A DNA stretch of 49,749 nucleotides. It comes from Bacilli bacterium (GTDB lineage: Bacteria; Bacillota_I; Bacilli_A; RF39; UBA660). Shown piece by piece: positions 13,723 through 42,297 of the stretch. Within the stretch, counting starts at the first letter, position 1; the number at the start of each line of letters is the position of its first letter. Location of the stretch: the NCBI GenBank assembly GCA_017462455.1, contig JAFTRC010000022.1, positions 1 to 49,749 of the forward strand. Direction: 5' to 3'. The position numbers and the translations under genes are program-made. The notes under the pieces were generated by a model. It made no database searches, had not been told where the DNA came from, and saw only the letters and a program-made list of their open reading frames with translations.

Positions 13723-13754
13723 TTTACCACCCAATATAATTATACCATATTTAC

Positions 13755-15048: not shown

Positions 15049-15059
15049 AATTATTCTCC

Positions 15060-18500: not shown

Positions 18501-18526
18501 TATATATAACCTCCATCATGTTTTTA

Positions 18527-19261: not shown

Positions 19262-19269
19262 ACTACCTC

Positions 19270-20085: not shown

Positions 20086-20149
20086 TACTATCGTCTCCTT
20101 AATCATCTTTATTAATTATATCAAATATGGTAATTCTTTACAAGAAAAT

Positions 20150-21094
20150 TCAAGAAATATGATATATTCTACAATAAAATTTTGTAAAGAATTTATTTTT
20201 TGATATTAATTGTTTAAAAAAGTTCATTTTATTAAAACATTCATTTGATTTATAATTAATAGTATTTTTTTCTATATATTCAAAAGCTTCATCTATAAAT
20301 TTATATCCTAATTTTAAATTTTTTTGATATTTTTGCAACAAACAATAATCTGTTAATTTTAATATAACTAATGAATCTAGACTTTTTTTTATGTATTTCT
20401 TATCTTTAAAATAATATAATAATTCATCAAAAGAAATAAATATATCAAATATTCTTTCATCCATAGTTGTTGTTTCACTATTCGCATGATGAGTAAAAAA
20501 ACACAATGATTCATTAACTTTACCTATTTTATTTGCCTTATCAAACAAAATTGATACTAATTTAAAATCTTCATATTTTATTCCCACAGGAAATTCTAAA
20601 CCATTAAATAATTCTCTTTTAAATAATTTGTTACAAGGGCCTAAATTTATATCAATTGATAAATTAGGAGTATCTTTTAATGTAGTATTGTTAAATTGAA
20701 TTAATTTATCTTCTCTTACAATATTATAATTAATAGAATCAACAGTATTATAATCACAAATTACAACATCTAAATTTTCGTCATGCATTTTTCTATACAT
20801 TTTTTCAAGCATATCTTCTTTTACATAATCATCACTATCTACAAAACAAATTGTTTCTCCGATACTCTTTTCTAAACCATAATTTCTAGCTATTGATATA
20901 CCCCTCTCTTTAGTTTTTAAATATTTAACTCTTTCATCTTTATAAGATTTTATTATAAGTGGGCTATCATCAGTTGAACCATTATCTATAAATAGAAATT
21001 CTGCATCTTTTAAAGTTTGACTTATCAAAGAATCTATACATTTTTTTATATATTTCGAAGAATTATAAACAGGTATTATAACACTTACTTTCAT
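20150..21094 (-). CDS. GT2 family glycosyltransferase
   Basis: VIIPVYN, DNGSTD, ARNYGL, FVDSDD. Confidence 0.92.
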   Translation of the reverse strand: MKVSVIIPVYNSSKYIKKCIDSLISQTLKDAEFLFIDNGSTDDSPLIIKSYKDERVKYLKTKERGISIARNYGLEKSIGETICFVDSDDYVKEDMLEKMYRKMHDENLDVVICDYNTVDSINYNIVREDKLIQFNNTTLKDTPNLSIDINLGPCNKLFKRELFNGLEFPVGIKYEDFKLVSILFDKANKIGKVNESLCFFTHHANSETTTMDERIFDIFISFDELLYYFKDKKYIKKSLDSLVILKLTDYCLLQKYQKNLKLGYKFIDEAFEYIEKNTINYKSNECFNKMNFFKQLISKNKFFTKFYCRIYHIS

Positions 21095-22005
21095 TTTATC
21101 ACCTTTAAATATAAACTTAGATTAAATTTCATCAACATTTTTTTTAATTTTCTAATGAAAGTATCTGTTAATATATTATCAAATACTTTCATTTCTTTTA
21201 GCTTATTTATATAAATCTCATAATCCTTTTTATTTAAAGCTTTTGCTTTCAAAATAACTGAATTAGCTATAAACGATAAATACGTTTTGCTTGCTTTTTT
21301 TGATTCAATTAAATAAGAATAGTGCTCCAATATATCAAATGCTTTCTTACATTCTTTATTATAATTAGAATTGTTCATTATACTATTATCTCTTTGTATA
21401 TAATTATATCCTACATACTCTATTGAAGTAACACTTTGTGATTCAATTATAATTCTAGGTATCAAGCCAAAATCTTCGTGATATAAACCTTCCTTAAAAA
21501 TATAATTATTATTGATATAAAATTTTCTTTTTATAGCATATAAACAAGCAAGTTCTACATACTTATAAGAAGATATTTTATTGAAAGCAGATTCTCCATT
21601 TAAATTTTTAAATGGAGACTCTAAATACGCTTTTTCTTTATCTTCATAAACAATATTTACCTGATACCTAATAAGTTCAGGATCATTTTTCACTTTACTT
21701 AGGTTAAATAATAAGTCCTTATTTAAATAATCATCGCTATCTAAAAATAATATATATTCTCCTTGAGCATTTTTTACGCCAATATTTCTAGCAACGCTTA
21801 ATCCCTTATTTTCTTGTTTTATATATTTTATATTGCCATATTTTTTTAAATAATCTTTTACTATTTTTTCTGAATTATCTTTCGAACCATCATTTACTAA
21901 AATAATTTCATAATCTTTAAGTGTTTGATTAATTACACTATCAATACATTTTTTCAAAAATTTTTCTGTATTATATATTGGAATAATGATACTATATTTT
22001 ATCAC
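21091..22005 (-). CDS. GT2 family glycosyltransferase
   Basis: IIIPIYN, NDGSKD, GLSVARN.G, FLDSDD, HEDFG. Confidence 0.92.
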   Translation of the reverse strand: MIKYSIIIPIYNTEKFLKKCIDSVINQTLKDYEIILVNDGSKDNSEKIVKDYLKKYGNIKYIKQENKGLSVARNIGVKNAQGEYILFLDSDDYLNKDLLFNLSKVKNDPELIRYQVNIVYEDKEKAYLESPFKNLNGESAFNKISSYKYVELACLYAIKRKFYINNNYIFKEGLYHEDFGLIPRIIIESQSVTSIEYVGYNYIQRDNSIMNNSNYNKECKKAFDILEHYSYLIESKKASKTYLSFIANSVILKAKALNKKDYEIYINKLKEMKVFDNILTDTFIRKLKKMLMKFNLSLYLKVIK

Positions 22006-24350
22006 TATATCACCTCATCAAATATTTTTTCTAAATTTCTCATTCTATTTGTATTTAACTTATTAAAATCTAATTTTTCTAATTTTAAATTATCATTAAC
22101 AACAATATCTTTTATTTGTTTTATCATAGTTTTTTCATTTTTTGAAACAATATATCCAAATCTATTTGGTATTGATATTTCATCATCACTAACATCAATT
22201 GTAGTAATTATTTTTTTATTTAGTACTATTGATTCTGGATACACTAAAGGAAAACCTTCATAGTCACTTGTAAGTATAATATAATCAGCTATTTTCATAT
22301 AAGGGTATGGATTTAATTTAAGCCCTAATAATTTAATATTTTTGTTTTTAATTAACTTCTCATATTTTTCTTTTTCTTCCCCGTCACCTATTATAAGAAG
22401 TTCAACATCTTTTAATTCATTAAATACATTTATTAAACGAGATACTTTTTTAGCTTCCTCTTCTAATCTACCAACAAATACAAAAGTTGTTTTATTGCTT
22501 TTAATATAATCTATTTTTTCATTAGATTTTTTTATTATTGCTTTATAATCAACTAAGTTATTTATAACGATACACTTATTTTTTAAATTTTTATAAACAT
22601 TTATAAAATCATCTTTAGCTTCATTAGATACAAATATAATTTTTCTATATTTATTTATTTTTCTACTATTGAAGAAATATTTAAATTCTTCTATATCTTT
22701 ATAAATTTGAGTATAATTACTATGAATAAATAAACTACAATTTTTACTAGCTAATTTAGAAAGTACATTTCCCGGATATGAATAAGTTGCATAACAAATA
22801 CTTGCATCATAAGTCATATAATTATTAAAAACAAACTTTATTCTTTTTAATATATTAGAAATTTTTCTTACTAATATATTTTTATTACAAGAAGTATTAT
22901 ATTCTATTATATTTACACATACAGGAACTTCATTTAATAATTCTCCACTCTTTGTTTCTAACATTAAATCTACATCATATTTATTATAATCAATATTTTT
23001 TAGTAACGTAATTAGTGCTTTTTCAATGCCACCTATTCTTAAATCATTAGCACAAAACAATATTCTTTTTTTATAATTACCATCAAAATATATTTTATAA
23101 GTAGAAGCTATTATTATTGCAGCTATTATACTAACAGATGGGGATGTTAATACATGGCCAGAAAATCCGCTCATTAATATAATCAAAATAAGAGATATCA
23201 AGTAAATTCCTGTATCTTTTATATGCTTATTTTTAAACCATCTCTTTACTATATTAAATAACAATACTATAAATGGAAAGAAATATATAATAAATCCCAT
23301 AATCCCATTCGCATAAAACACATCATAATAATCTATCTCAATTAACTTTTTATTAGTATCCACATTTTCATTTTCTCTAACAAACCCCACACCTATAAAT
23401 TTTTCTATAATATTAGAATTATCATAACTTTGTTTTATATTTTCTAAGAAAGTTATTCTATCGCTATATATAAATCTATCTATATTATTTGTATCTGTTA
23501 AAAGTTCACCAACACTCTCTATACCTAAAAAATTAAGATGTATATTTATATTTTTATAGAAGTTTGTTTTAGGTATAAATATTATACTTACTAAACCAAA
23601 TACAATAATAGCTGATAATAAAATTATTATTCTTTTTATTAAATTTATTTTTGATAAATATTTTAAGAAAAAATATAATAGACTTAAAAGCAAACAAATA
23701 ATTGGAACTTTAGTACCAATAAACAAGCATAAAATTGATACAAAAACAAATAATATTAAACTCATAAATTTGTTTTTCAAGTTAAATATATAATCTAATA
23801 CAAAAGGAATTAAAATTCCTATTATAGCACTTATATCACTAGCTGAATAAAATAAGCCACTACTACCTACTTTTCCTTCTAAATATGAATTAAATCCAAT
23901 TCCAAATATAATAGGAATAACTATTAAAATCACATATATAAAGAATATTTTAACTAAAATATTCTTATCAATAATTTTGTCTTTTTCTTTAAAAAGACAA
24001 AACATAAATACTAAAGTTATTGGAAAATACCAAAACTTAAATAAATTTATTAAATTATAAATTAAATTATTAAAATTAACAGAAAATAAATTATATAGTG
24101 AAAATATAAGTATATAGACAATTACAAACAAAAAATATATTATTGATTTCTTTTTATTTCTAAAAACAAATATCATGGAATAAATAGCAAAAAGCATAAA
24201 TAACATTTTTGTTATAATTCCTATACTAACAGTGCTTAAAAAAGAACGCGTTGTTATAGAAGTTATTAAATCAAAAATAGGTTGCAACAATATAAAGAGT
24301 GTTGTAATTTTAAATACATTTTTATTTATCCAATTATTTATTTTTTCCAT
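22005..24350 (-). CDS. Fusion of O-antigen ligase/polymerase-like membrane domain and GT4 glycosyltransferase
   Basis: Start moved to MEKINNW. Multi-TM N-half (G.FYSASDIS, IGTK, EIDYYD.F...G..G, SGHVL); C-half with GGIEKAL, FVGRL, EGFPLV..E. Confidence 0.75.
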   Translation of the reverse strand: MEKINNWINKNVFKITTLFILLQPIFDLITSITTRSFLSTVSIGIITKMLFMLFAIYSMIFVFRNKKKSIIYFLFVIVYILIFSLYNLFSVNFNNLIYNLINLFKFWYFPITLVFMFCLFKEKDKIIDKNILVKIFFIYVILIVIPIIFGIGFNSYLEGKVGSSGLFYSASDISAIIGILIPFVLDYIFNLKNKFMSLILFVFVSILCLFIGTKVPIICLLLSLLYFFLKYLSKINLIKRIIILLSAIIVFGLVSIIFIPKTNFYKNINIHLNFLGIESVGELLTDTNNIDRFIYSDRITFLENIKQSYDNSNIIEKFIGVGFVRENENVDTNKKLIEIDYYDVFYANGIMGFIIYFFPFIVLLFNIVKRWFKNKHIKDTGIYLISLILIILMSGFSGHVLTSPSVSIIAAIIIASTYKIYFDGNYKKRILFCANDLRIGGIEKALITLLKNIDYNKYDVDLMLETKSGELLNEVPVCVNIIEYNTSCNKNILVRKISNILKRIKFVFNNYMTYDASICYATYSYPGNVLSKLASKNCSLFIHSNYTQIYKDIEEFKYFFNSRKINKYRKIIFVSNEAKDDFINVYKNLKNKCIVINNLVDYKAIIKKSNEKIDYIKSNKTTFVFVGRLEEEAKKVSRLINVFNELKDVELLIIGDGEEKEKYEKLIKNKNIKLLGLKLNPYPYMKIADYIILTSDYEGFPLVYPESIVLNKKIITTIDVSDDEISIPNRFGYIVSKNEKTMIKQIKDIVVNDNLKLEKLDFNKLNTNRMRNLEKIFDEVI

Positions 24351-25395
24351 TCTTTTTTTCACACCTTGCTTTTTTTGAAAATAATATATCTGTTTTAAAT
24401 ACAAATATCATAAGCGCTATCATCAATATTCCATATATAGTGTATCCAATTTGATGATCTACTAATAACCAAATTATTGATGCAGCTGAGAATAAGGCAG
24501 TTATTAAATATATAATTAATACCGTAGTTTTAACACTGCAATTTTTTCTAAGTAATTGATGGTGAAAATGACTCTTATCAGGAGTACCTATACTCTCACC
24601 TTTTAATTTTCTTCTTATTATCGCACAAATAGTATCCAGTATTGGTACTATTAATATACAAAGTGGAATTATAATAGATGAAGTTATAATGCTCTTAAAA
24701 CCTAATAAAGTTATTACAGCTATTATAAATCCTAAAAACATAGATCCAGAATCTCCCATAAATATCTTCGCTGGGTTAAAATTGTGTACTAAGAAACCTA
24801 AAGTAGACCCAAACATAATAAAAGTTAAAATTACTGATAATCCAGTTCTTCCTTGACAATAAGCAATAATTCCTATAGTTAAAAAGAATATTGAACTAAT
24901 TCCTCCTGCAAGGCCATCAAGTCCATCTATTAAATTCAAACAATTTATACATCCTAAAATAAACAAAATTGTTATCGGATAAGCCCATATCCCAAAATTT
25001 ATATATATTCCAAAGAAACTAACATCTTTTAATAGTAATCCACCATAAAATACAACGATTAAAGCAGCTAATATTTGTCCTACTAACTTATGAGATGCTT
25101 TAAGAGGTTTTATATCATCAATTATTCCTGTTATAATTAATACAAAACTACCTATTAATATGGAATTCATAATTGTAGTATGTATCCCAAATATAATATA
25201 TCCAAGTAAAAAACCAGCATATATTCCAAGACCACCTAATCTTGGCATTGGTTTGTTATGAACCTTTCTTTTGTCAGGGATATCTAAAGCCCCTACATGC
25301 TCTGCTATTTTTTTTACAATTGGTATTATTGCAGTAACAAATACAAATGGTATAAAAATCATTAAAAGTATTGTTGTTATGTTTATATCCTTCAT
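24334..25395 (-). CDS. tagO: Undecaprenyl-phosphate GlcNAc-1-phosphate transferase (TagO/WecA)
   Basis: DIPDKRKVH.KPMPRLGG, GIIDD, NLIDGLDGLA, FMGDSGS, HFHH. Confidence 0.93.
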   Translation of the reverse strand: MKDINITTILLMIFIPFVFVTAIIPIVKKIAEHVGALDIPDKRKVHNKPMPRLGGLGIYAGFLLGYIIFGIHTTIMNSILIGSFVLIITGIIDDIKPLKASHKLVGQILAALIVVFYGGLLLKDVSFFGIYINFGIWAYPITILFILGCINCLNLIDGLDGLAGGISSIFFLTIGIIAYCQGRTGLSVILTFIMFGSTLGFLVHNFNPAKIFMGDSGSMFLGFIIAVITLLGFKSIITSSIIIPLCILIVPILDTICAIIRRKLKGESIGTPDKSHFHHQLLRKNCSVKTTVLIIYLITALFSAASIIWLLVDHQIGYTIYGILMIALMIFVFKTDILFSKKARCEKKNGKNK

Positions 25396-25533
25396 TTTAA
25401 TCACCTAGATTAATTATAACATATTTAAGATTATTTAGAAAGTTTTTACTTCTTATTTTGAGTATTTAGTCAATATTTGTCATCAAAACTTTATTTTTTT
25501 ATAAAAATAAGTTATAATTATTATGGTGATGAT

Positions 25534-29675: not shown

Positions 29676-30074
29676 CTACTTCAGACGCATATCTTCTTTT
29701 ATTTTTGAAGTTGATATACCTTCTGTCCTATCTAAGTATATTACTTCACAATATTTTTTTAAATATTCAAATTGTTCAGATCCGGCCCAATCACTTCCCA
29801 TGACAATAACATCTACTTTATATTTTTTAATGTCTAAAACTTTCTGATTCCATTTTTTTTCTGGTATAACCAAATCTACATATTTTATAGATTCTATCAT
29901 TTTTTTTCTTGTTTCATAATCATAATATGATTTTTTCCCTTTAATTTTATTAAATTCATCTGTAGATACAGCTACTATCAAATAATCACCCAAAGATTTA
30001 GCGCGTTGCAATAACCTTATATGACCATAATGTAATAAATCAAATGTTCCATACGTTAATATTCTTTTCATCAT
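29676..30074 (-). CDS. tagD: Glycerol-3-phosphate cytidylyltransferase (copy 1)
   Basis: TYGTFDLLHYGH, STDEFN, MGSDW, RTEGISTS. Confidence 0.95.
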   Translation of the reverse strand: MMKRILTYGTFDLLHYGHIRLLQRAKSLGDYLIVAVSTDEFNKIKGKKSYYDYETRKKMIESIKYVDLVIPEKKWNQKVLDIKKYKVDVIVMGSDWAGSEQFEYLKKYCEVIYLDRTEGISTSKIKEDMRLK

Positions 30075-31292: not shown

Positions 31293-32184
31293 TTAAATTT
31301 TAGATTTTTCTATTATTTTTTCTAAATATTCATTGTCCTCTATTTTATTTATTCCAAAACATTTCTTACCTAAACCTTTTAAACTAGTTGAAAATCTCCA
31401 GATGATATAAAGTATTATCAGCAATTATAAAGCGATTATGAAATATATTTCAATATTTTATTTTTAAATTAGAATATCGTTGATTAAATCTGTTTATATC
31501 TAATTTAGTTAAGTAATGACTACTAATTACTAAATCTACGCTTACATTTTCTTTTTTATATATAAGCATATCTAATATACTTTTATCTATATAATTATCT
31601 ATTATAATTATTCTATTATTAGCTTTTTTTATTAATTCAATTATCAAACTATATGAATCATAGATTTTTCCGTTAAAGAATATCTTTTGTTTCTCTACTC
31701 TTTTAGGTTCCAATCTATCAAATAATTCATCTATTTTATCTTTGCACTCAATCATTTCATACTCAACTGTAGTTAACCTTCTAAATATAGCTTTATTTTC
31801 ATTTATAAATTTTATCATTGCTACAAAAGTTCTCAATATTTTTACACTAACGCTAGCTGCATTTTCTGTTCTTAGTACAGTAGCTAACATTGCAACTCCT
31901 TCTTCCGTAAATACTTGAGGATTATATTTTGAATACTGATTTTGTTTTAATTCTAAGGTTCTAAAATGGAACCTTAGAAATTTTACTTCTTCTTCTATTA
32001 ATTGAAAATAAAAATCATCTGGAAATTTTTCTATATTTCTTTTAACTGCTTTAATAATATCCTTTGTTCCGTTTTTGCATCCATATAATATAACTAAATC
32101 AGAATCCAACATTACTTGTTTTCCTCATATTTCATAAATTAAATTTTCTATTTTTATTTCTTTTTTAATTATTACAGCGTTCAT
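31293..32184 (-). pseudogene. ORF6N-domain DNA-binding protein pseudogene
   Basis: SD GGAGG and ATG at 32184 give MNAVIIKKEIKIENLIYEI*GKQVMLDSDL (TGA at 32125-32127). Second TGA at 31450-31452 (KIKY*NIFHNRFII), then a frameshift before SLKGLGKKCFGINKIED. The ORF track shows only the middle fragment 31450-32112. Confidence 0.85.
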
Positions 32185-32243
32185 TGCATTCCTCCCTACT
32201 AATATTATATTGTAAAACTTTTTGATTTCCTTTTTTTATACAG

Positions 32244-32277
32244 AAAAAAGTAGAAAAAATTATTTTTTTCTACTTTT
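32244..32277 (-). terminator. AU-rich terminator after the acyltransferase fusion gene
   Basis: AAAAGTAGAAAAAA / TTTTTTCTACTTTT inverted repeat. Confidence 0.55.
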
Positions 32278-32283
32278 CATTTG

Positions 32284-35190
32284 CTATTCAAAACTTTTTA
32301 TTACAGCTTCACTATATAGTTTTACACCTAAAGTACTATTTGGATGAATAAAATCAACCATGTATAATGAAGTATCTTTATCTTCTAAAAATTCTCTAAT
32401 ATATATATTTGGATTAACAAAATAGTAGTTATTTTCTTCAGCATATTCTTTTAATGCATCGCTATACTCATCTAACATATTGTTTTTTGCTTCCTCATTT
32501 AATTTTGATACTGTATCATTCGATAAAGAAAACCATGGACTTATTAAAATTATTTTAGCTGATTTATTTGATTTTTTTATTAATTTAATTATTTTGGTAA
32601 TATTTTTTATGTATTCTTCTTTAGTCATAGAGCAAGTTTCTTTGTTACGATACCTAACATCATTAGTACCAAGTGCAATAAAATATAAATCGCTATCAGA
32701 ATTTAATATCTGTTCTTTGTAATCCGAATATATTAATTTAGTTGTATATCCACCTTTTGAAATATTAACTATAGTTTTATTATTAAAACTATTCATCAAT
32801 GGTTCATACCAAGGATAATAATCATTTTTTGTTCCTTCTGTAATACTATCCCCAATAAATGCTACTTTTTTACTATCGTTTATTAATTTATACAATTCAT
32901 TATCTTCATAATCATTTATCTCATCTAAAAACAAATAATCTTCAGTATAATAATTGTTATTTATAAAATAATATTTTTCTTTAACATGATCTACAGATAT
33001 TTCTTTATTTATCATAACTTTAGTAATTAATTTTTGAACTTTTTCAACTCTAGTTAATTCGTAAACAGATAATTCTTCATTTAACTCTTTATTAGTTATA
33101 ATATCATATATTGGAAGAGCTCTATAATAACCAGTTTTATATTCTTGAGTATACATTGGTACTATACTTGAACCAATCACTTCTTTTGTTTCTTTATCAA
33201 TATGAATATTTACTAAAGCTGTTGCATCACCATCATTACCAACATAAGAGTTGGCAAAATTTCCAGGACAATTTACAACAATTGTTTCATTTATATACTC
33301 AATAGGTTGAACAGCATGAGCATGATCTGAAAGAATTATATCTGCTCCTAAATTAGAAAATATTTGATTCCATTTATCTTGAAAATCATTGGTAGTATGT
33401 TTAAATTGAGTTCCCATATGAGCAAAAACCATTATTAAATCTGCTCCTGTTTCTTTTGCTTCAACAAAATCATCTTTAATTTCTTGATATATTTCATCAT
33501 AATAAGGGTTACTTGTATAAGGAATGTAAGAGGTAATATGAGAATTGGTTTCGTATAAAGAATTTATTTTATAACCATTAACTGAACTCAGATATGATAA
33601 GACAGCTACTTTTACGCCTTCTATTTCAACTACAATAACATCTTTCTCTTCTTTTTCCTCCTGATTACGATATGAACCTGTATTTGTAATTTCTAATTCA
33701 TCTAACACATCAAGAGTCCTATAAGCCCCTTTAATACCAGTATCTAACAAATGATTATTAGCAGTTGTTACTAAATCAATTCCAGAATTTTTAATTGCTT
33801 CGGCAAATTCATCTGGATAATTAAGCATTAATTTTAAACCATCTCCGTAATTGCTTGTAGAATATGAAATTCTATCTCCTGCCATTGGACCTTCGAGTAC
33901 ACCTACAGCTAAATCTGCAGCTTTTAAATAAGTAGATGCATATTCAAACATATCGTTAAAATCATAACTATCAGTTTCTTCATTATATGCAGAAGTAACC
34001 TGATCTTTTAATAAAATTAAATCTCCTACATATGAAATTGTAAGTGAATCATCTAAATAATTTTTTAAATCTTCGTCTAACACCTTTATAGTTTCAGTAG
34101 TTGGATATATTGGTTCCTCATTAATTTTATTTACAATAGTTTTTAAAGGATTATATATTAGTACTAATATAGGAATTGCAAATATTGCAATTCTTAAAAT
34201 ATCGCTTACTCTATCCGTACCACTTACTATTCTTTCAGATATACTATTAAATAATTTAGATACGGAATTATTTATTTTTTCGCCTCCAAAAATAATTATA
34301 GTTATTACAGTAGCAATTAAAGAAAATAAAAGATATATAATACTATAATCATTTACCGGAAAAACACAAACAAATAAAATTGTTATAAAACGATGGAATA
34401 AATAAATTAATAATGAATTTCTACCTATTTTTGTTAATATCGGTATTTTTTTATTTGGAACTATTAAAAATGAAATTCCTATCATTATTGCAGATATCAC
34501 AAATATGATTATTCTGTAAATAATATCTTGTGGATTTTTATATGAACCCATTAAAAGCATTTTTTCTGTTATTGTATTATTTCTTATATATAATATTAAC
34601 AATATAGAAAAACTTACTAACAAACAAAATCCTAATAAATAATGTTTGTAGTTTCTCTTTTTTAGGAACGACTCAACTTTTTCTTTAGAAAATTTATATC
34701 CTATTAAGAAAAACGGAAAAAATGCGATTGTTCTTCTTATAGAAAGAATATTACCAAATGATGACCAATAACCAATAAGTAAAGATAAAATAATTGATAT
34801 TGGTATTATTCCTTTTACTTTTGATACTTTCTTTATACACAATCTCCAACAAATGAGTGATAATATATACCAATACGAATTATATGGATTTAAAATGCTA
34901 ATACTCGTTCCTTTTAGAAAATATAAGAAGAACATCATAGCAGTATTAAAAAATAAATAATAAAGCAAAAGTTTTATTAATGATTTAGAACTATCAGAAT
35001 TTTCTGATTTACTAAAATAACCTGATGCAAATATAAAAGCCGGCATATGAAAAGTATAAATAAAAACTACAATATCATTTACCAAACTTCCTATGTTATT
35101 AGATGAATAAGAATAAAGAAAATGACTGAATACTACTAAAAATATTAATATTCCTTTATAATTATCCCAAAATAAATTACGTTTTTTCAT
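32284..35190 (-). CDS. Acyltransferase-3 + CapA (PGA_cap) + SGNH hydrolase three-domain fusion
   Basis: WDNYKGILIFLVVFSH...FHMPAFIFASGY (AT3); VGDL, TANNH, AHMG, DHAH, PGNF (CapA metallophosphoesterase-like); FIGDSIT, GTND, DFIHPN (SGNH). Start moved to MKKRNLF. Confidence 0.85.
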   Translation of the reverse strand: MKKRNLFWDNYKGILIFLVVFSHFLYSYSSNNIGSLVNDIVVFIYTFHMPAFIFASGYFSKSENSDSSKSLIKLLLYYLFFNTAMMFFLYFLKGTSISILNPYNSYWYILSLICWRLCIKKVSKVKGIIPISIILSLLIGYWSSFGNILSIRRTIAFFPFFLIGYKFSKEKVESFLKKRNYKHYLLGFCLLVSFSILLILYIRNNTITEKMLLMGSYKNPQDIIYRIIIFVISAIMIGISFLIVPNKKIPILTKIGRNSLLIYLFHRFITILFVCVFPVNDYSIIYLLFSLIATVITIIIFGGEKINNSVSKLFNSISERIVSGTDRVSDILRIAIFAIPILVLIYNPLKTIVNKINEEPIYPTTETIKVLDEDLKNYLDDSLTISYVGDLILLKDQVTSAYNEETDSYDFNDMFEYASTYLKAADLAVGVLEGPMAGDRISYSTSNYGDGLKLMLNYPDEFAEAIKNSGIDLVTTANNHLLDTGIKGAYRTLDVLDELEITNTGSYRNQEEKEEKDVIVVEIEGVKVAVLSYLSSVNGYKINSLYETNSHITSYIPYTSNPYYDEIYQEIKDDFVEAKETGADLIMVFAHMGTQFKHTTNDFQDKWNQIFSNLGADIILSDHAHAVQPIEYINETIVVNCPGNFANSYVGNDGDATALVNIHIDKETKEVIGSSIVPMYTQEYKTGYYRALPIYDIITNKELNEELSVYELTRVEKVQKLITKVMINKEISVDHVKEKYYFINNNYYTEDYLFLDEINDYEDNELYKLINDSKKVAFIGDSITEGTKNDYYPWYEPLMNSFNNKTIVNISKGGYTTKLIYSDYKEQILNSDSDLYFIALGTNDVRYRNKETCSMTKEEYIKNITKIIKLIKKSNKSAKIILISPWFSLSNDTVSKLNEEAKNNMLDEYSDALKEYAEENNYYFVNPNIYIREFLEDKDTSLYMVDFIHPNSTLGVKLYSEAVIKSFE

Positions 35191-35222
35191 AGTACCTCCC
35201 ATTCAATTTATATATAATAAGA

Positions 35223-35244
35223 AAGTAATGTCTAGACATTACTT
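35223..35244. other. Perfect 22-bp palindrome AAGTAATGTCTAGACATTACTT (terminator/processing hairpin or operator)
   Basis: Exactly self-complementary; overlaps the stop codon of the ATP-grasp gene, ~40 bp upstream of the next SD. Confidence 0.6.
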
Positions 35245-36420
35245 ATATTTTAATTCTTCCCATCTTGGTTTCAAACCGCCATTACAAACTTGAATTCCTT
35301 TGAAAGAATAATTCCAATTTATTTCAACAATAACTGGACCAGTTTCAGTTATTGCTATATCCCAACCTATTGTAGCGAATCCAAAAATAATTGGGTGTAA
35401 ATTTTTAATTAATTCAACGGTTTCTTTCCAATATGGGATTTGATAATTGTTATATACTAGACCAGTTACTGGATGACTAGTAGTTCTTGGCTTATTGTAA
35501 AAATATCCATATTTATCTAATTTACCAGTATTCGTATTGATTGCTATAAATGTTCCTCCTGCATCAGCATTATCAACCACTTGCCCCTTTTTAGCTCCTA
35601 CCCTTATCATAGCAGCTAAAATATGAGTTTTTTCATTCCATCTAGTAGATATAATTCTTAAAGTATTAACTGTTTCATCATTTATTTTATTTATATCCGC
35701 ATGTTGTTTTAAAAACTCTTGAACAAGAAAAGGTTTTTGTATACTACTTTTTATTAAATCTGAAAGAGTAACTTCTTTATTACTTAATTTAATACTGTTA
35801 CCTTTTTTAGTAAGAGCCACTATCATATCTCCATGCGAACCTACTGTAGGTTTGCAAATATATTTTCCATCTGGTAAATTTTTGAATGCAACTCTTGTAT
35901 TTGAATATTTTTCATAAGGAGCAATAACTTTATTGCCTGAAAATGTAAATACAGTATTAGGAATATTATTTGGAAACATACTTCCTACATATGAATAAAA
36001 TACACTTTTGTCGTCTGCAATAATTGAATATCTGTCATTAACATTCGCTTTTCTAACTTTTACTAATGGGTGCTTTTTATGATGAACCATAGCCCTGTCT
36101 TTTTTTACATAGCCAAAATCCAAATAATCATCCATACTTCTAAAATTTTTTATATCTAATCCAAATCTATTATAAAAAAGATTTACTCTATGATATTTAA
36201 AATACCATTTAAAATTATCAAATAGTCTTGTTAAATATTTTTTTCTTTTCATTTCAGGATAAAAAGTCTTTTCACTAGATACCATGAAACACCTAAAAAT
36301 ATTAAATAAAAAACTTCCTCTTAATGATTTTCTTACCTTGCTTGGTAATGTTCTTTGATAAACTTCTTTTATATGATCATATCTCATTTGATCTTCATCT
36401 GAATATACAAAACTTGCCAT
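35239..36420 (-). CDS. Sugar-transfer-associated ATP-grasp protein (ATPgrasp_ST), paralog 1
   Basis: DDKSVF, KPTVGSHG, VQEFLKQH, VNTLRI, DNADAGG, IPYW, GWDIAITETGPVIVEINW. Confidence 0.85.
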   Translation of the reverse strand: MASFVYSDEDQMRYDHIKEVYQRTLPSKVRKSLRGSFLFNIFRCFMVSSEKTFYPEMKRKKYLTRLFDNFKWYFKYHRVNLFYNRFGLDIKNFRSMDDYLDFGYVKKDRAMVHHKKHPLVKVRKANVNDRYSIIADDKSVFYSYVGSMFPNNIPNTVFTFSGNKVIAPYEKYSNTRVAFKNLPDGKYICKPTVGSHGDMIVALTKKGNSIKLSNKEVTLSDLIKSSIQKPFLVQEFLKQHADINKINDETVNTLRIISTRWNEKTHILAAMIRVGAKKGQVVDNADAGGTFIAINTNTGKLDKYGYFYNKPRTTSHPVTGLVYNNYQIPYWKETVELIKNLHPIIFGFATIGWDIAITETGPVIVEINWNYSFKGIQVCNGGLKPRWEELKYK

Positions 36421-36504
36421 ACTAATTCTTCTTTCTATTTCTCCGTATTATTTCAATGCGATAATATTTTATCATTTTTGTTTAATTATTTCAATACCTA
36501 TATT

Positions 36505-38046
36505 TTATAAGTATTTATCTATCATAGTAGATTTTAGACCTTTGTTTTGCATAGATTTAGCTAATTGAACAACATAATAGGCTCCAGTGTTTCCTTCAAT
36601 TAAATCTATACCATTTTCAGTAATAGCAAAATCCCAGCCAATTAATTTAGAACCTTCCACTACAAAAGCAATTTCATTACATAATTTAACTATTTGATCC
36701 CAATTAGGTATATGAAAACCTTTAATTTTTTTATTAGTCATAGGACTTCTTTTATGAATATTATTATTCACATCAATCGCATGAGTATCTACAATTCCAG
36801 TTTTAACATCAACATTAGCAGCTACCCCATTAGCATGAAAATTATCAACAACATCACCATTTCCAATTCTAAATAAAGAACTTACTAATTCACATTTACC
36901 ATTATGTACTATTGTTGTTACTCTCACTGTATTAACAGAGGTTGGACAAAATTCTAACATTTCCTTGCTTTGAACAATATACTGTTCAATAATGGCTTTA
37001 CCAATAGACATTATAAATTCATAAGTTTTCTTATCATTTTTTTCACTTATATTACATTCAAAACATTTTATTCCTACCCCGCAAGTAGAAGATAAAGGCT
37101 TAACGATTATTTTTTTCAATCCTTTAATTTCCTTTTTAAATGCTTCGAATGTTAAATTATCATTTGTAAACCAACGACGCTTAATGTAATCTTTAAAAAC
37201 TTTGTTGAAATTTGATTTTATATCAAAATTATCACGAGTTGAATAATATTCATTGTATTTATTTCTAAGTCTGTCAAAGTTTTTTAAAGTTACATAAGAT
37301 GCCTGTTTTCTTGGACTTTTCTTGTAAAATTTAAAACCTAGATAATCTTCATAGCTACATTCTGATACTGATTTAGCTTTTCTTGTTTCAAATTCAACTT
37401 TTTCTATACTCCATTTAGTTTTTTCACATATTCGTTTTATATATTCTTTTGTATTTTTCCTTATTCTTTTCTTATCCGCTTTTAAGAAATTCGCAATTGA
37501 TTCAATATTTTCTGATTTATAAGCGCCTTTAGAAACAAAATGCTTATAATCAATTCCTTTTTCCTTAGCTTCATCCATTTCTTTTTTTGCTTTTTCCATA
37601 GACCAACCAGTAACTTTTTGAGCTAATTCCAAATAAAATTCATCATTCATTTTTTCTATTTCTTTACATTTTCTTAAATATCCGAGATATTCATCAAATT
37701 TTTTTGAGCTTAATAAATATAAATTTCTATCAAAATAAGTTTTATCAGTTATACCATATTTGTTTACCAAAAATTTTCTAGCAACTATTTCTTCTTTTAA
37801 TATTCCTGTTTTTAGTTTAATTAAATGTAATTCGCTATCTTGTTTTTCAATATAATCATTTATTTTATTATTTAAATCAACTATTTCTTCTTCAGATAAT
37901 TCCCAGGCTCTATTTAAAAGGAATCGCTTATATTTCATGCCATTTTTTCTTGCAAATCTTAATTTTGTTTCTATAACTTCTTTTTCTAAACCACATTTTT
38001 TAATAATCATTTTTTTACTTTTACTCTTTTTTAATTTTTTCTTCAT
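36505..38046 (-). CDS. Sugar-transfer-associated ATP-grasp protein, paralog 2, with repeated N-terminal module
   Basis: KSNFNKVF, VKPLSSTCGVG, EQYIVQ, SVNTVRV, VDNFHANG, IPNW, GWDFAITENG..LIEGN. Confidence 0.85.
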   Translation of the reverse strand: MKKKLKKSKSKKMIIKKCGLEKEVIETKLRFARKNGMKYKRFLLNRAWELSEEEIVDLNNKINDYIEKQDSELHLIKLKTGILKEEIVARKFLVNKYGITDKTYFDRNLYLLSSKKFDEYLGYLRKCKEIEKMNDEFYLELAQKVTGWSMEKAKKEMDEAKEKGIDYKHFVSKGAYKSENIESIANFLKADKKRIRKNTKEYIKRICEKTKWSIEKVEFETRKAKSVSECSYEDYLGFKFYKKSPRKQASYVTLKNFDRLRNKYNEYYSTRDNFDIKSNFNKVFKDYIKRRWFTNDNLTFEAFKKEIKGLKKIIVKPLSSTCGVGIKCFECNISEKNDKKTYEFIMSIGKAIIEQYIVQSKEMLEFCPTSVNTVRVTTIVHNGKCELVSSLFRIGNGDVVDNFHANGVAANVDVKTGIVDTHAIDVNNNIHKRSPMTNKKIKGFHIPNWDQIVKLCNEIAFVVEGSKLIGWDFAITENGIDLIEGNTGAYYVVQLAKSMQNKGLKSTMIDKYL

Positions 38047-38064
38047 ACTACACTTCCTCTACTT

Positions 38065-39117
38065 CTACTTAATTATACCATGCTCTTTGTAAAATTTACC
38101 CAACTTTTTATTTCTTTGTCCACCCCATATTTGAATAATATTCACTCCTGATGATGTATTAGCTTCAATCAATGATGTCCCACTATCTGTAACTAATATA
38201 TCCCAAGCAACGAAATTAAAATAAGGGTATTTTTCCATCACTTTAGTATATGTTTCTTTGATTTTTTTCCAATTTGGAATTTTCACCCCTTTTATTATTT
38301 TATTTGAATCAGGATGTATGTCATATTTTTCATTAGTTTGAATCGTTCTAGCTTCACTAAGTTCTCCTGTTTCTAAATCTATCTTAGAAACAAATCCACC
38401 CTTTGAACCATTATCAACCGGTATAGAGGATTTTCTACCAATGCGCTGTACAGCATATAAGACTTCACATTTTTTTGTTTCTGCATTTCTAACTGTTATT
38501 AAACGTATTGTATTTGTTGTATATTCATAAATATCATCTAAATATTTTGCTTGTTTTATATAATCTGAAATAAACCAATTATCTTTTCTCTTTAATAAAT
38601 TTATTATCTCAGATTCAGATATTACCATATTATTAATTTTTATTTCTTTAGTATTATATTCTATTTTATATATATCCGAACCCTTTCCTTTACTTATAGG
38701 TTTCATAATAAAAGATTGTTTATTTTTTAATAACTTTATTATATCTTTATATGTCTTTATATTCCCGCTTGAATATATTTTTTTACCTTTTTTAAAACAA
38801 TATACTTTTGGAATATCTAAATCATTTTTAAACAAATCAGAGCAAACTACCTTGTTGTTAAGCAAAAAACTATAATTACCATTTATATATCTAGATTTAT
38901 ACCAATCAAATTCTGATAAATAATTTTTTTTGTTTTTATGATTTAAATTATATATAACAATTTGATCGGCCATAAAACCGCCAAATATTGCATAATATAT
39001 TCTTTTGAATATATTAACCTTGAAATGAGATTTTGCAAACAAAATATTAACTATCCAAATTACAGATAACTTAATAAACTTAGTAAATCCATCATAAATA
39101 TTTTTTAATTTATTCAT
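38065..39117 (-). CDS. Sugar-transfer-associated ATP-grasp protein, paralog 3
   Basis: NNKVV, KPISKGKG, TTNTIRL, VDNGSKGG, IPNW, AWDILVTDSG..LIEAN. Confidence 0.85.
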   Translation of the reverse strand: MNKLKNIYDGFTKFIKLSVIWIVNILFAKSHFKVNIFKRIYYAIFGGFMADQIVIYNLNHKNKKNYLSEFDWYKSRYINGNYSFLLNNKVVCSDLFKNDLDIPKVYCFKKGKKIYSSGNIKTYKDIIKLLKNKQSFIMKPISKGKGSDIYKIEYNTKEIKINNMVISESEIINLLKRKDNWFISDYIKQAKYLDDIYEYTTNTIRLITVRNAETKKCEVLYAVQRIGRKSSIPVDNGSKGGFVSKIDLETGELSEARTIQTNEKYDIHPDSNKIIKGVKIPNWKKIKETYTKVMEKYPYFNFVAWDILVTDSGTSLIEANTSSGVNIIQIWGGQRNKKLGKFYKEHGIIK

Positions 39118-39123
39118 TTATTT

Positions 39124-40230
39124 CTACCTCATCTTATCTATTATAAATTCTACTATCTTGTTTGTTGCATCTTCAAAATTTTTAGGTAAATACTTCTTTT
39201 TATAAGTTTTAAAACTTTCAATGTCATATTCACCACTTTGTAAATTTTTTACTAATTTTTTACCATCTTTAAAGGTAAGTTTTGGAAATTCTTTAAATGT
39301 ATCCAAATTCAATCCATTACTTTTTATATAATCTTCATAATCATATAAATAATAATATGTTTTTTTATTTATAGCTGCAGCTTCAACTGCCAATGAAGAA
39401 TAATCTGTAATAAAATAATCACAAATAGTTAATAATTCATAAATGTTAATTTTTAATTTTGAACTTGTATATATATTTGGATTATCAATATTTAATTGAT
39501 GTTTTGGATGTGAAGTAATTATTAAAATATATTTATCATAATCTATATTTTTTATCAAATCTTCAGTACTACTTTTTTTACTTACTCTAAATGTTGGCGA
39601 ATATAATATTACTTGTTTAGTTTTTAATTCCGGATATCTTCTATATATTTTCTTTTGAATTTCTTTTAAGTTGTTATGTATATATGCAGCTCTGGGTAAT
39701 CCAATATTCCATAATTTATCTTCACTTATATTAAAGGACTCTGTATATGCATGATTCCAAGCTTTAGCACCCGCTACTACAATATCATAATTTTTATGCA
39801 TATCAAGAAGTAAAGCCATTTTTTTGCTCCTACCATCTGGTTTATCAAGAGTTTGATATCCAGATTGTTTTATTTTACCCATAGCATGCCATATTTGTAT
39901 TATAGTTAAACTTTTTTTATGTTTTAAAATACTGACAGGTAAAGAATATGAATCTATTACACATACCTTTGAAGTAGCTAAATGATACATGCTACTTAAA
40001 ATATTGGTTACAAAACTAAATTTTAAACCTTTTGTGCTTTCTACTCTTTGACAAATTGTAACTATTTTATAATTTTCTTCTTCTAAACCTTCAATAATCA
40101 ATCTGAAATCTAAAGGCACTCTATTAGATTGTCTAGATAAAAACAACACTTTATTTTGTGTTTTATTTAGTTTCATAAATAAATAAATAAATTTTAAAAA
40201 TAATTTTCCTATTTTAATGATTAATGTCAT
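39124..40230 (-). CDS. CDP-glycerol/ribitol phosphotransferase (TagB/TagF family)
   Basis: IQIWHAMGKIK..G, GLPR, YSPTFR, HP, ITDYSS. Confidence 0.88.
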   Translation of the reverse strand: MTLIIKIGKLFLKFIYLFMKLNKTQNKVLFLSRQSNRVPLDFRLIIEGLEEENYKIVTICQRVESTKGLKFSFVTNILSSMYHLATSKVCVIDSYSLPVSILKHKKSLTIIQIWHAMGKIKQSGYQTLDKPDGRSKKMALLLDMHKNYDIVVAGAKAWNHAYTESFNISEDKLWNIGLPRAAYIHNNLKEIQKKIYRRYPELKTKQVILYSPTFRVSKKSSTEDLIKNIDYDKYILIITSHPKHQLNIDNPNIYTSSKLKINIYELLTICDYFITDYSSLAVEAAAINKKTYYYLYDYEDYIKSNGLNLDTFKEFPKLTFKDGKKLVKNLQSGEYDIESFKTYKKKYLPKNFEDATNKIVEFIIDKMR

Positions 40231-40648
40231 ACTTCTCTCTCATTTCTGGATCTTTGTTTAAATATTCTCTTATTTTTGTTGATGAATAAGGTAAAGTTTT
40301 AGGTGTTTTATCTAAATAAATTACTTCACAATATTCTTTAAGGTAATCATATTTACCTTGCCAATCAGAAAAACTTACTAAAATATCTATATTATACTTT
40401 AATATATCATCTTTTTTTTGTTCGAAACTTTTTTGTTCGAATGTCTCATCTACATATTTTATAGATTGTACCATTTCTTTTCTTATTTCATACGGATAAA
40501 AAGCTCTTTTATTCTTTTTGTTTTCATTAAAATCATCACTACTTACACCCACGATTAAATAATCTCCCATTTCTTTTGCACGCCTTAAATAATCTAGGTG
40601 GCCGTAGTGTAAAATATCAAAAGTTCCATAAGTTAGTACTCTTTTCAT
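40214..40648 (-). CDS. tagD: Glycerol-3-phosphate cytidylyltransferase-like (copy 2)
   Basis: Start moved to MKRVLTYGTFDILHYGH; SSDDFN, SSTKIR. Confidence 0.88.
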   Translation of the reverse strand: MKRVLTYGTFDILHYGHLDYLRRAKEMGDYLIVGVSSDDFNENKKNKRAFYPYEIRKEMVQSIKYVDETFEQKSFEQKKDDILKYNIDILVSFSDWQGKYDYLKEYCEVIYLDKTPKTLPYSSTKIREYLNKDPEMREKYDINH

Positions 40649-40649
40649 T

Positions 40650-41417
40650 TTATACCACTTCTCCCATTTCTGCTTTATATTTAGAAATAATTTCTTTAGG
40701 ATTTCCTTTATCAACAACTACACCCTCATTTATCCATAGTACTTCATCACACAATTCTTGTACAGTTGCTAAACTATGTGAAACTATAATAACTGTTCTT
40801 TTATCAGAAGATATAAGTTCTTTCATTTTGTTATAACTTTTTGTTTTAAATTTAACATCTCCTACAGATAGCACTTCATCTATCAGCATAATATCTGTTT
40901 CTAAAATAGCAGTAATTGCAAAAGCTAATTTAGAATACATTCCTGAAGAATAAGTTTTAACAGGTTTATCTATAAATTTACCAATATCAGCAAACTCAAC
41001 TATTTCTTTTTCTTTTTCTGATATTTGTTTTTCAGAAAAACCTAATAACATTCCAGATAAATATATGTTTTCTCTACCAGTCAATTTTTTATTAAATCCA
41101 ACACCTATTGATAATAAAGAGATGCTATTACCATGAAGATTTATTGAACCTTTATCCGGAGAAAATATTCCAGCTACAGCACGCAATAAAGTACTTTTTC
41201 CAGCACCATTTTGCCCAATTATGCCTAATATTTTACCTTCTTCAATTTCAAAACTAATACCTTTTAAAGCTTTATGTATTTCTACTTTGTCTCTAAATTT
41301 CATAAATGATTCTTTTATAGAAGTTTTTTTCAAGCCTTTATAATATATGTGCAAATTTTTTACAGTAACAGCTATTTTCTTCTTTGAAGTTGTCTTTGTA
41401 TTTTCCTTCTTTTTCAT
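40650..41417 (-). CDS. tagH: Teichoic-acid-type ABC exporter ATPase
   Basis: GQNGAGKST, YSSGMYSKL, LIDEVLSVGD. Confidence 0.88.
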   Translation of the reverse strand: MKKKENTKTTSKKKIAVTVKNLHIYYKGLKKTSIKESFMKFRDKVEIHKALKGISFEIEEGKILGIIGQNGAGKSTLLRAVAGIFSPDKGSINLHGNSISLLSIGVGFNKKLTGRENIYLSGMLLGFSEKQISEKEKEIVEFADIGKFIDKPVKTYSSGMYSKLAFAITAILETDIMLIDEVLSVGDVKFKTKSYNKMKELISSDKRTVIIVSHSLATVQELCDEVLWINEGVVVDKGNPKEIISKYKAEMGEVV

Positions 41418-42199
41418 TATATCACCTTCGCATAAGTATTTTCATTTTTATGGATAATTCTAACTCCAATCATACATAGTATTATTCCTATTATTAACCA
41501 AAATAATAATCCTTCAATGCTTACCATTTTACCTTCTAACATACATTTTCTAGCTTCATCCATAAGAAAGGCAGCCGGATTCAATCGTAATAAGAAAAAG
41601 CCTATAGCGCCACCTATTTTAGTTCTAAGGTTATAAAATACTCCCGATACATAAAATAGCATTCTAAGACCTATATGAGTAAAATTTAATAAATCACTAA
41701 ACTTAACACCATAGTTCATAAGTATCATTCCTATCCCAAAAGATAGAATATATAGAACTATTAACACTGGAATAATTAATAATATATGCCATGTTATTGT
41801 TACACCTTGAATAAGCATTAAAACGAATACTATTAAAAATGAAATACCAAACTTAAATAAAAACGTAAATGACTTTGATAGTAATAATATATATTTTGGT
41901 ATATATACCTTGGTAACCAAATCCCTGTTTCCAGCTATAAGTCTAACACTTCCTGTAATCATTCTGTTAAAAAATTGCCATACAGTAAGACCTATATATA
42001 TAAATGAAGCATAATAAGGTTCATTATGTTTAAATATATATCCAAATACAAACACATATATAAGCATAAAACATAATGGTTCAATTATCCACCATAACCA
42101 ATTTAGATAAGAATCTGAAACTTCACTTTTTAATTCAGCTTTAGCTGCTCTAATCGCATATCTATAATATTTTTTTATATTACCGAAAAATTTCTTCAT
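41417..42199 (-). CDS. tagG: Teichoic-acid-type ABC-2 permease
   Basis: AELKSEVSDSYLNWLWWIIEP, FYVSGVFY, LNP. Confidence 0.88.
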   Translation of the reverse strand: MKKFFGNIKKYYRYAIRAAKAELKSEVSDSYLNWLWWIIEPLCFMLIYVFVFGYIFKHNEPYYASFIYIGLTVWQFFNRMITGSVRLIAGNRDLVTKVYIPKYILLLSKSFTFLFKFGISFLIVFVLMLIQGVTITWHILLIIPVLIVLYILSFGIGMILMNYGVKFSDLLNFTHIGLRMLFYVSGVFYNLRTKIGGAIGFFLLRLNPAAFLMDEARKCMLEGKMVSIEGLLFWLIIGIILCMIGVRIIHKNENTYAKVI

Positions 42200-42297
42200 A
42201 TAACCACCATAACCATTATATCATATATTTCTTTAATAAAGAAATAAAATGTCGAATATTTGCCTTAAAAATTAGTTTATTGACAAAAAAAATAGAA

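Follow-up and report, generated by a model that had tools for sequence, protein, structure and literature searches.

An AT3-PGA_cap-SGNH fusion protein from an uncultured gut Bacilli lineage, a candidate tailoring enzyme of a cell-wall polymer

Introduction

What would a single bacterial protein do with an acyltransferase-3 (AT3) membrane domain, a CapA-type domain and an SGNH domain in one chain? The question is raised by a minus-strand gene at positions 32284 to 35190 of contig JAFTRC010000022.1 (GCA_017462455.1), in a window of 49,749 nucleotides (the whole stretch of DNA analysed here) from an uncultured gut Bacilli lineage, whose genome is an 82%-complete bin of 1.21 Mb in 68 contigs with 24% GC. 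An earlier note had described the gene as an OatA-like enzyme with an inserted metallophosphoesterase domain, acting on the polymer made by the genes upstream of it.

The role of CapA/PgsA has been obscure since polyglutamate synthesis was first dissected. In Bacillus subtilis, pgsBC without pgsA gives L-polyglutamate (D/L 4/96), whilst with pgsA the ratio is 75/25, and the authors of the work on the lasso-peptide epimerase MslH propose CapA as the epimerase bringing D-Glu into polyglutamate; the epimerase idea rests, indirectly, on MslH and on such pgsA-less strains. The family described here puts a CapA-type domain outside polyglutamate, in one chain with two better-understood domains. A search of the literature found no paper on the AT3-PGA_cap-SGNH architecture, on a role of the CapA family in polysaccharide clusters or on the structure of PgsA, and the AT3 fusions listed in a review of these proteins are with SGNH and alanine-racemase domains only (PMC9558356). 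The architecture appears to be uncharacterised, as the earlier note had supposed; AT3-SGNH acyltransferases and CapA/MslH-type enzymes were already known. We suggest, tentatively, that the fusion couples O-acylation of an exported polymer to epimerisation of the amino-acid decorations of that polymer. We infer the catalytic activities, the acyl donor, the polymer and its amino acids from sequence, predicted structure and gene context.

Results

A minus-strand open reading frame at 32284..35202 encodes 972 amino acids in a single frame with no internal stop. Translation almost certainly starts at the second ATG, at 35190, because a GGGAGG Shine-Dalgarno sequence lies 5 nt upstream of it, the first ATG overlaps this Shine-Dalgarno, and M5 is conserved in homologues; public collections call the same 968-aa gene (P0002, matching 32284-35190). 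All residue numbers given here count from the upstream ATG at 35202, so that 4 must be subtracted for the 968-aa protein. Three Pfam domains score above their curated cut-offs: Acyl_transf_3 (72.2 bits against 31, covering 2-323 of 326 profile positions), PGA_cap (178.1 bits against 27, covering 1-254 of 255) and Lipase_GDSL_2 (78.4 bits against 32.9). An AlphaFold2 model of the whole fusion, built on a 62-sequence alignment, has a mean predicted local distance difference test (pLDDT) score of 91.6. The protein is laid out as follows.

32284..35190, minus strand: whole gene, AT3 / PGA_cap / SGNH fusion, 968 aa (open reading frame, Pfam, start-site reading, independent contigs)
34291..35175, minus strand: Acyl_transf_3 (AT3, PF01757) membrane domain, residues 10-304 (Pfam, conservation, AlphaFold2)
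34120..34212, minus strand: 11th membrane-spanning helix, residues 331-361, predicted to take the chain outside (AlphaFold2; alignment with stand-alone paralogues)
33247..34041, minus strand: PGA_cap (PF09587; CapA/PgsA/MslH-type, calcineurin-like fold), residues 388-652 (Pfam, conservation, structure matches)
32860..33246, minus strand: end of the PGA_cap fold and structured linker, residues 653-781, with beta strands and helices 698-731 and 759-776 (AlphaFold2)
32335..32859, minus strand: SGNH / GDSL_2 domain, residues 782-956 (Pfam Lipase_GDSL_2, conservation, structure matches)

The fusion is genuine and no assembly chimera, since the identical 968-aa protein, in the same gene context, stands on 6 contigs from independent assemblies and a scan of one genome per GTDB species found a relative in 257 genomes. 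Together with the single open frame, these observations refute an assembly or gene-calling artefact, the first of which the earlier note had raised as a possibility. More than 600 clusters at 90% identity matched the protein, and among the 120 matches listed all full-length proteins are collinear with the AT3-PGA_cap-SGNH order. Public annotation reads just 'CapA family protein'.

Conservation was scored across 119 full-length homologues, in which the catalytic residues of all three domains are kept; the motifs that had been picked out by eye (VVFSH in AT3, NNH/HMG/HAH in PGA_cap and GDS-GTND-DxxH in SGNH) are all among them. Helix 1 of the AT3 domain carries a K16-X10-H27 motif, with exactly 10 residues between the two and with H27 inside VVFSH; K16 is kept in 117/119 homologues and H27 in at least 97%, and D13, N14, H52, R120, Y221, R230, H270 and R271 are invariant. 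AlphaFold2 predicts about 10 membrane helices, an amphipathic helix (308-327), an 11th hydrophobic helix (331-361) and then two globular domains. This agrees with OafA/OafB-type AT3 proteins, in which helix 1 bears K/R-X10-H and an 11th helix, added to the first 10, brings the C-terminal part to the outside. Stand-alone CapA-like proteins have an N-terminal anchor to which helix 331-361 is homologous; these paralogues align from about residue 337. OatA/OafA-type fused proteins also carry RXXR in helix 3 and GG-F/Y-XGV-D/P/V at the outer end of helix 2, and neither motif was found in AT3 residues 28-100. NCBIfam matches of the domain are weak, to MdoC and NolL types and none to OatA. The domain is thus, on its sequence, an AT3 member but no OatA orthologue, and 'OatA-like' is apt by analogy only.

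At the other end of the protein, SGNH blocks I, II, III and V are all present (G784-D785-S786; G817; G845-T-N847-D848; D950-x-x-H953), giving a predicted Ser786-Asp950-His953 triad with G817 and N847 as oxyanion residues. S786 is kept in 115/119 homologues, D950 in 114/119 and H953 in 111/119; the block residues as a whole are kept in 111-119/119, with the exception of the block-II glycine G817 (93/119). The closest solved structures to this domain are acetyl-xylan and sialate O-acetyl esterases.

The PGA_cap domain between them is the most conserved of the three, with a mean pairwise identity of 56.6% as against 47.5% for SGNH and 40.4% for AT3. Its conserved residues are D394, E437, N483-H484-x2-D487, H595, H627-x-H629, N648 and D659; NNH corresponds to N482-N483-H484, HMG contains H595, and HAH supplies H627 and H629. 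A separate model of the domain (pLDDT 91.9; predicted template modelling (pTM) score 0.92) found MslH, the sole solved member of the PGA_cap family, as its best Foldseek match (E 8.6e-14, template modelling (TM) score 0.65), followed by nucleotidases (next, at E 3e-8), a YmdB-like phosphatase and purple acid phosphatases, all at E 3e-8 or worse. A single-sequence search of the PDB with the domain gave no match, whilst a 61-sequence PGA_cap profile found MslH at E 2.6e-5. In the profile alignment N483/H484/D487 correspond to MslH N87/H88/D91, H595 to H259 and H629 to H295, and D394 and E437 pair with MslH D11 and E44 by motif order; 7 of the 8 key residues of MslH have a counterpart in the fusion, the eighth, H261, being G597 here. 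In MslH, a single Ca(II) is bound by E44, N87, H259 and H261, and two His/Asp acid-base pairs, H88/D91 and H295/D11, invert the C-terminal Trp; mutation of any key residue abolishes epimerisation. This chemistry needs an N-acylated residue with its free alpha-carboxylate on the metal. The fusion scores 20 bits against the 700-bit cut-off of the NCBIfam MslH model and is therefore no MslH equivalog.

As a description of the fold, 'metallophosphoesterase' stands; as a description of the chemistry it fits less well, the nearest solved structure being a Ca-dependent peptide epimerase. We consider it unlikely that PGA_cap is a true metallophosphoesterase or phosphotransferase which trims, releases or re-attaches a teichoic-type chain whilst AT3-SGNH acylates the same chain. 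Such an activity would suit the calcineurin-like fold, the phosphodiesterases and nucleotidases that follow MslH among the matches, a putative metal-ligand set that is nearly complete (D394, E437, N483, H595, H627 and H629), and the Glyphos_transf genes that repeatedly lie near family members (in this window and at the loci L003, L067, L069 and L113). However, compared with the calcineurin motifs DxH, GD, GNH(D/E), H and GHxH, the domain has N483-H484, H595 and H627-x-H629, but D394 is not followed by the His of the first motif (GDLIL) and E437 takes the place of the motif-II Asp. No phosphoesterase comes within five orders of magnitude of MslH as a structural match, and a PGA_cap+ATPgrasp_ST fusion in Alkalicoccus saliphilus (see below) argues for amide or amino-acid chemistry. 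We know of no phosphoesterase among PGA_cap members and found none in the literature, where the MslH and PgsA data point to epimerisation instead. The same data bear on the suggested link between CapA and wall anchoring, which we do not uphold: PgsA/CapA is implicated in D-Glu content, and anchoring in Bacillus anthracis is done by CapD.

In principle, PGA_cap could also be a non-catalytic spacer or substrate-binding module in an ordinary AT3-SGNH O-acetyltransferase, since AT3-SGNH versions lacking it occur in the same subfamily and OafB needs a structured linker between AT3 and SGNH. We regard this as very improbable. Across sequences that are no more than 40-58% identical, all residues predicted to bind metal or to serve as acid or base vary little or not at all, and they are still there in the few members whose SGNH triad or AT3 K16/H27 pair has been lost. 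Because PGA_cap is the most conserved domain and its key residues outlast such decay, it appears to be strongly selected as a catalyst and not as a spacer.

The arrangement of domains across the family suggests how the three activities relate. An exhaustive search of 1.84 billion representatives gave 447 matches at E <= 1e-30, and the best 147 of these were assigned to architectures with domain hidden Markov models:

AT3-PGA_cap-SGNH: 56 representatives
anchor-PGA_cap-SGNH: 40 representatives (some entries are fragments)
AT3-PGA_cap: 18 representatives (all break off at one position, immediately ahead of SGNH)
PGA_cap with a short N-terminus and no SGNH: 11 representatives
AT3 only: 8 representatives
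other N-terminus with PGA_cap-SGNH: 7 representatives
AT3-SGNH without PGA_cap: 4 representatives
SGNH only: 3 representatives

The anchor-PGA_cap-SGNH form is exemplified by P0187, which is genuine, lying on a 109-kb contig. One of the AT3-SGNH proteins without PGA_cap retains the linker that follows PGA_cap, and with such close relatives it is fair to call the CapA domain 'inserted'. Within the group with another N-terminus, two proteins have a hexapeptide-repeat, PglD-like acetyltransferase and one an alpha/beta-hydrolase-like domain with a GSSLGG elbow; these three proteins have no membrane segment. The family is thus modular: PGA_cap-SGNH is its commonest pairing, and the N-terminal partner is AT3, a hexapeptide acetyltransferase, an alpha/beta-hydrolase-like domain or a bare anchor. 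As PGA_cap-SGNH recurs whilst the acyl-handling partner is swapped, the genomes give good evidence of a single process that includes both acyl transfer and the PGA_cap reaction. A 435-aa open reading frame upstream of an anchor-only PGA_cap-SGNH gene (locus L114) was tested as a split AT3 and is not AT3.

Relatives are mostly found in Clostridia (Oscillospiraceae, Ruminococcus, Lachnospiraceae, Acutalibacteraceae), with some in Bacilli and Selenomonadaceae and a few in Riflebacteria, Anaerolineae, Desulfobulbaceae and Alphaproteobacteria; the best 80 of the 257 genomes are all metagenome-assembled or uncultured. To survey gene neighbourhoods we took 80 AT3-type loci with 10-kb flanks and compared the cassette proteins of the window with their open reading frames by phmmer. 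ATP-grasp (ATPgrasp_ST) genes lie near 3/80 of these loci and TagF-like genes near 3/80, so that co-occurrence with ATPgrasp_ST genes, proposed as a check in the earlier note, does not hold as a family trait. All-against-all clustering of 602 neighbour genes gave no cluster present in more than 9 loci, and a Pfam tally of 279 flanking genes (141 at positions +-1 and 138 at +-2/3) gave no family present in more than 5. As no neighbour is conserved across the 80 loci, the fusion family has no obligatory gene partner. The nearest relatives have housekeeping genes as neighbours (RNase R, RmuC, MscL, ArgRS).

The ATP-grasp link recurs independently all the same, in this window, in the Bacilli metagenome-assembled genome (MAG) at L003, and in the cultured Alkalicoccus saliphilus. 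At L003 the eight-gene set of the window is present in another order. In A. saliphilus, a hydrolase-PGA_cap-SGNH gene, encoding WP_160058167.1, lies beside a gene that fuses PGA_cap to ATP-grasp directly:

L115:6349-8535: PGA_cap (6-265) + ATPgrasp_ST (439-699) fusion, 728 aa, without membrane anchor, Alkalicoccus saliphilus

The same locus holds three RimK-like ATP-grasp genes, one with an acylphosphatase domain, and a gene for a priming sugar transferase (Bac_transf), and appears to encode an as yet uncharacterised pathway that makes an amino-acid polymer or decoration. At L113, a hexapeptide (PglD-like)-PGA_cap-SGNH gene with no membrane segment (L113:8001-10775) stands in a teichoic-type cluster with LicD, IspD, a 644-aa Glyphos_transf protein, a pyruvyl transferase, a methyltransferase and GDPD.

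A different neighbour was seen at L014, L016, L018, L019 and L020, where a fatty-acid-coenzyme A (CoA)-ligase-like gene (about 544 aa where complete) lies directly downstream on the same strand. Such a neighbour occurs in 5-6 loci whose labels are Ruminiclostridium, Thermoclostridium, Clostridiaceae or Bacillota, and in one further locus from Oscillospiraceae. It is at most a weak hint that the acyl donor in those loci may differ from acetyl-CoA, because the first five look like synteny shared among related organisms.

In the genome studied here, the fusion gene lies at the end of a polymer operon within an accessory island:

31300..42290, no strand assigned: accessory island, about 11 kb long, with a MiaB-like radical-SAM gene on one side and ylbD on the other (comparison with congeners)
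41417-42199, minus strand: ABC-2 permease
40650-41417, minus strand: TagH-like ABC ATPase
40214-40717, minus strand: glycerol-3-phosphate cytidylyltransferase (tagD)
39124-40230, minus strand: TarB/TagF-like glycerophosphotransferase
38065-39117, 36505-38046 and 35239-36420, minus strand: three tandem ATPgrasp_ST genes, weakly RimK-like, directly upstream of the fusion
35224..35243, minus strand: perfect 9-bp inverted repeat AGTAATGTC-TA-GACATTACT, then a T-rich run (sequence inspection)
31450-32112: ORF6N-domain gene at the island end, within the island

The operon reads ABC-2 permease, TagH-like ATPase, cytidylyltransferase, TarB-like protein, three ATPgrasp_ST proteins and, last, the fusion. 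The inverted repeat lies 30 nt before the fusion start, just ahead of the ribosome-binding site, and overlaps with the stop codon that ends the last ATP-grasp gene; its hairpin might weakly terminate transcription, or might affect processing or stability and so set how much ligase is made relative to tailoring enzyme.

The fusion gene was found in none of 26 same-genus and 10 same-family genomes, which have stand-alone, anchor-bearing CapA-like genes alone (about 30% identity to the PGA_cap of the fusion). No ATP-grasp gene was found in 22 of the 23 congeners searched; in the remaining one, G010, a weak match (E 8e-11) lies some 9 kb downstream of the MiaB-like gene. The site is empty in congeners G005 and G012, where ylbD-rsmD comes immediately after the MiaB-like gene. 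With both fusion and ATP-grasp genes missing from congeners and the site empty in two of them, genome comparison indicates that the fusion gene and the polymer genes arrived together. The proposed tie between the fusion and the upstream ATP-grasp and teichoic-type genes is borne out for this genome by the co-acquired island and by the same gene set at L003. No flanking direct repeat of >=10 nt was found at the island ends. G010 carries a different, 373-aa gene at the island site, which may therefore be an insertion hot spot.

The history of the island bears on whether the fusion might instead be a general peptidoglycan modifier, combining OatA-like O-acylation of glycan with a CapA-like action on a free-carboxylate residue of the stem peptide, its position in the cassette being incidental. 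Most copies indeed stand alone among housekeeping genes; the hosts include single-membrane Clostridia and Bacilli, double-membrane Selenomonadaceae and a few Riflebacteria, Anaerolineae and Proteobacteria, for which peptidoglycan is the obvious common envelope polymer; and this genome has penicillin-binding proteins and, besides one AT3-only gene, no other AT3-SGNH protein. Nevertheless, the 26 same-genus genomes share the cell plan and do without the fusion, which came with polymer genes in a set that recurs, reordered, at L003; cytoplasmic variants without a membrane segment exist; and the AT3 domain has no OatA/OafA-type motifs. We judge a general peptidoglycan role improbable.

Stand-alone relatives of the PGA_cap domain occur in the same genome. 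On another contig (C31:60177-62463, equivalent to L087:10177-12463), two tandem stand-alone PGA_cap genes of 374 and 386 aa lie between RNase R (rnr) and smpB. At the rnr-smpB site of related Bacilli MAGs there is an AT3-PGA_cap-SGNH fusion (L001) or an anchor-only PGA_cap-SGNH gene (L114). As these related MAGs hold CapA-like genes in the same neighbourhood, rnr-smpB looks like the ancestral home of CapA-like genes in this lineage. A 108-aa open reading frame (L087:12920-13246) comes directly after smpB on C31; it encodes a Cas12f1-like TNB domain and is a remnant of TnpB type. Some 5 kb upstream there is a DDE transposase. The genome gave no match to Caps_synth_CapC, with a positive B. subtilis control and within the 82% of the genome that is assembled; PgsB was not searched for.

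Two further loci were noted in the window. A second small cytidylyltransferase gene follows rsmD at 29676-30074; it is absent in congeners G005, G010 and G012, where rsmD is followed directly by a dockerin protein gene. At 10112-25404 lies a second, ABC-transporter-dependent wall-polysaccharide locus, with genes for a GT4 priming enzyme, a 799-aa O-antigen-ligase-like/GT1 fusion, three GT2 proteins, an ABC-2 protein, an ATPase, a UDP-GlcNAc 2-epimerase, a Glf-like flavoenzyme, GT1, GT28_C and a polysaccharide deacetylase. This locus may supply the acceptor or linkage unit for the island polymer.

Discussion

Taken together, these analyses suggest a polytopic membrane enzyme that would tailor a cell-wall polymer at the outer face of the membrane. 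The AT3 domain (10 helices plus the 11th) would bind cytoplasmic acyl-CoA and offer the acyl group at the outer face, where Ser786/Asp950/His953 of the SGNH domain would take it from AT3 and pass it to a polymer hydroxyl group, the way OatA, OafA and OafB do. PGA_cap would be a metal-dependent enzyme acting on the same polymer. Most likely it would invert, from L to D, the C-alpha of amino acids that are joined by an amide bond and have their alpha-carboxylate free, with E437, N483, H595 and H627 as the metal ligands and H484/D487 and H629/D394 as the two His/Asp pairs around the metal. The substrate here would be the product of the cassette, a glycerol-phosphate-containing polymer (TagD, TarB-like) to which the three RimK-like ATP-grasp ligases would add amino acids in the cytoplasm before export by TagGH. 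The epimerase reading draws on the parallel with the pairing of ligase and CapA in polyglutamate synthesis and with the chemistry of MslH.

Several observations weigh against this proposal. The HxH pair of dinuclear enzymes such as YmdB (H627, H629) is kept in the fusion, whereas MslH has G293 at the position of H627, and the metal ligand H261 of MslH is absent (G597). With that pair kept and H261 replaced, a two-metal site, and hence phosphoesterase chemistry, is possible, and the residue set alone is compatible with either an epimerase or a phosphoesterase. An SGNH domain may be an esterase and not a transferase, and the top structural matches of this one are acetyl esterases. In the neighbourhood survey, 77/80 AT3-type loci have no ATP-grasp gene within 10 kb, and most copies are solitary among housekeeping genes; most family members must therefore act on something that needs no ATP-grasp ligases. 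The PGA_cap-SGNH pair of the hexapeptide- and hydrolase-type variants is probably cytoplasmic, because these proteins have no membrane segment. Finally, the AlphaFold2 model of the whole fusion has a pTM of only 0.61.

A broader proposal, about which we are more doubtful, is that PGA_cap domains are general post-assembly amino-acid epimerases of envelope polymers, and that with ATP-grasp ligases, an AT3 or hexapeptide donor and SGNH they form an unrecognised extracellular route for D-amino-acid and acyl decoration of teichoic-like polymers, independent of Dlt and of cytoplasmic racemases, with the fusion as its single-polypeptide form. The swapped and split variants and the PGA_cap+ATP-grasp fusion of A. 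saliphilus offer independent genomic evidence that CapA-type domains act with amino-acid ligases and acyl-transfer modules on envelope polymers, and soluble domains and a culturable relative make CapA-type function testable. Should PGA_cap turn out to have phosphoesterase activity instead, it would represent a novel type of enzyme in the processing of teichoic acid. The family is common in uncultured gut and rumen Clostridia and Bacilli, so its modification is probably frequent on anaerobe surfaces; surface acylation and D-amino acids influence lysozyme, phage and immune recognition.

Amongst known systems, CapA/PgsA of PgsBCA(E) resembles the fusion in having an outward-facing PGA_cap domain on one membrane helix, partnered with ATP-dependent amide ligases. 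It differs in that the genome of the fusion has no CapC match, the ligases here are ATP-grasp and not the Mur-ligase-type PgsB, and PGA_cap is fused to AT3 and SGNH. A precedent for ATP-grasp-dependent, amino-acid-carrying wall polymers is the teichuronopeptide of the alkaliphile Bacillus halodurans (TupA-type ATP-grasp), a sugar-acid chain with polyglutamate, for which we know of no CapA-like, AT3 or SGNH component.

MslH (PDB 8GQ9, 8ITG) shares Pfam family and fold with the PGA_cap domain and is its best structural match, with the equivalences D11/D394, E44/E437, N87/N483, H88/H484, D91/D487, H259/H595 and H295/H629. Identity is about 14%, and the changes H261 to G597 and G293 to H627 mean that the site of the fusion may hold two metals. 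MslH is soluble and cytoplasmic and acts on a ribosomal peptide with its partner MslB1, whereas the PGA_cap of the fusion is predicted to be membrane-tethered and outward-facing.

OatA (Staphylococcus aureus peptidoglycan) and OafA/OafB (Salmonella O-antigen) share with the fusion an N-terminal AT3 with K/R-X10-H, 10+1 helices and an extracytoplasmic C-terminal SGNH triad. Unlike them, the fusion has about 265 residues of PGA_cap between helix 11 and SGNH, its AT3 lacks RXXR and GG-F/Y-XGV-D, and its SGNH is closest to acetyl esterases, not to OatA/OafB. Like most copies of the fusion family, oafA and oafB lie away from their own polymer cluster (PMC9558356). VanT, the second commonest AT3 fusion, likewise joins AT3 to an enzyme that inverts an amino-acid C-alpha (PMC9558356). 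In contrast to the fusion, its inverting domain is an unrelated one of the alanine-racemase type, its substrate is free serine and it has no SGNH domain. The racemase domain of VanT is pyridoxal-phosphate-dependent. DltB-DltD and PatA-PatB, in turn, use MBOAT and not AT3, are separate polypeptides and have no CapA-like part, yet in both a membrane acyl or aminoacyl carrier passes its group to an outward-facing SGNH-type protein that modifies teichoic acid or peptidoglycan.

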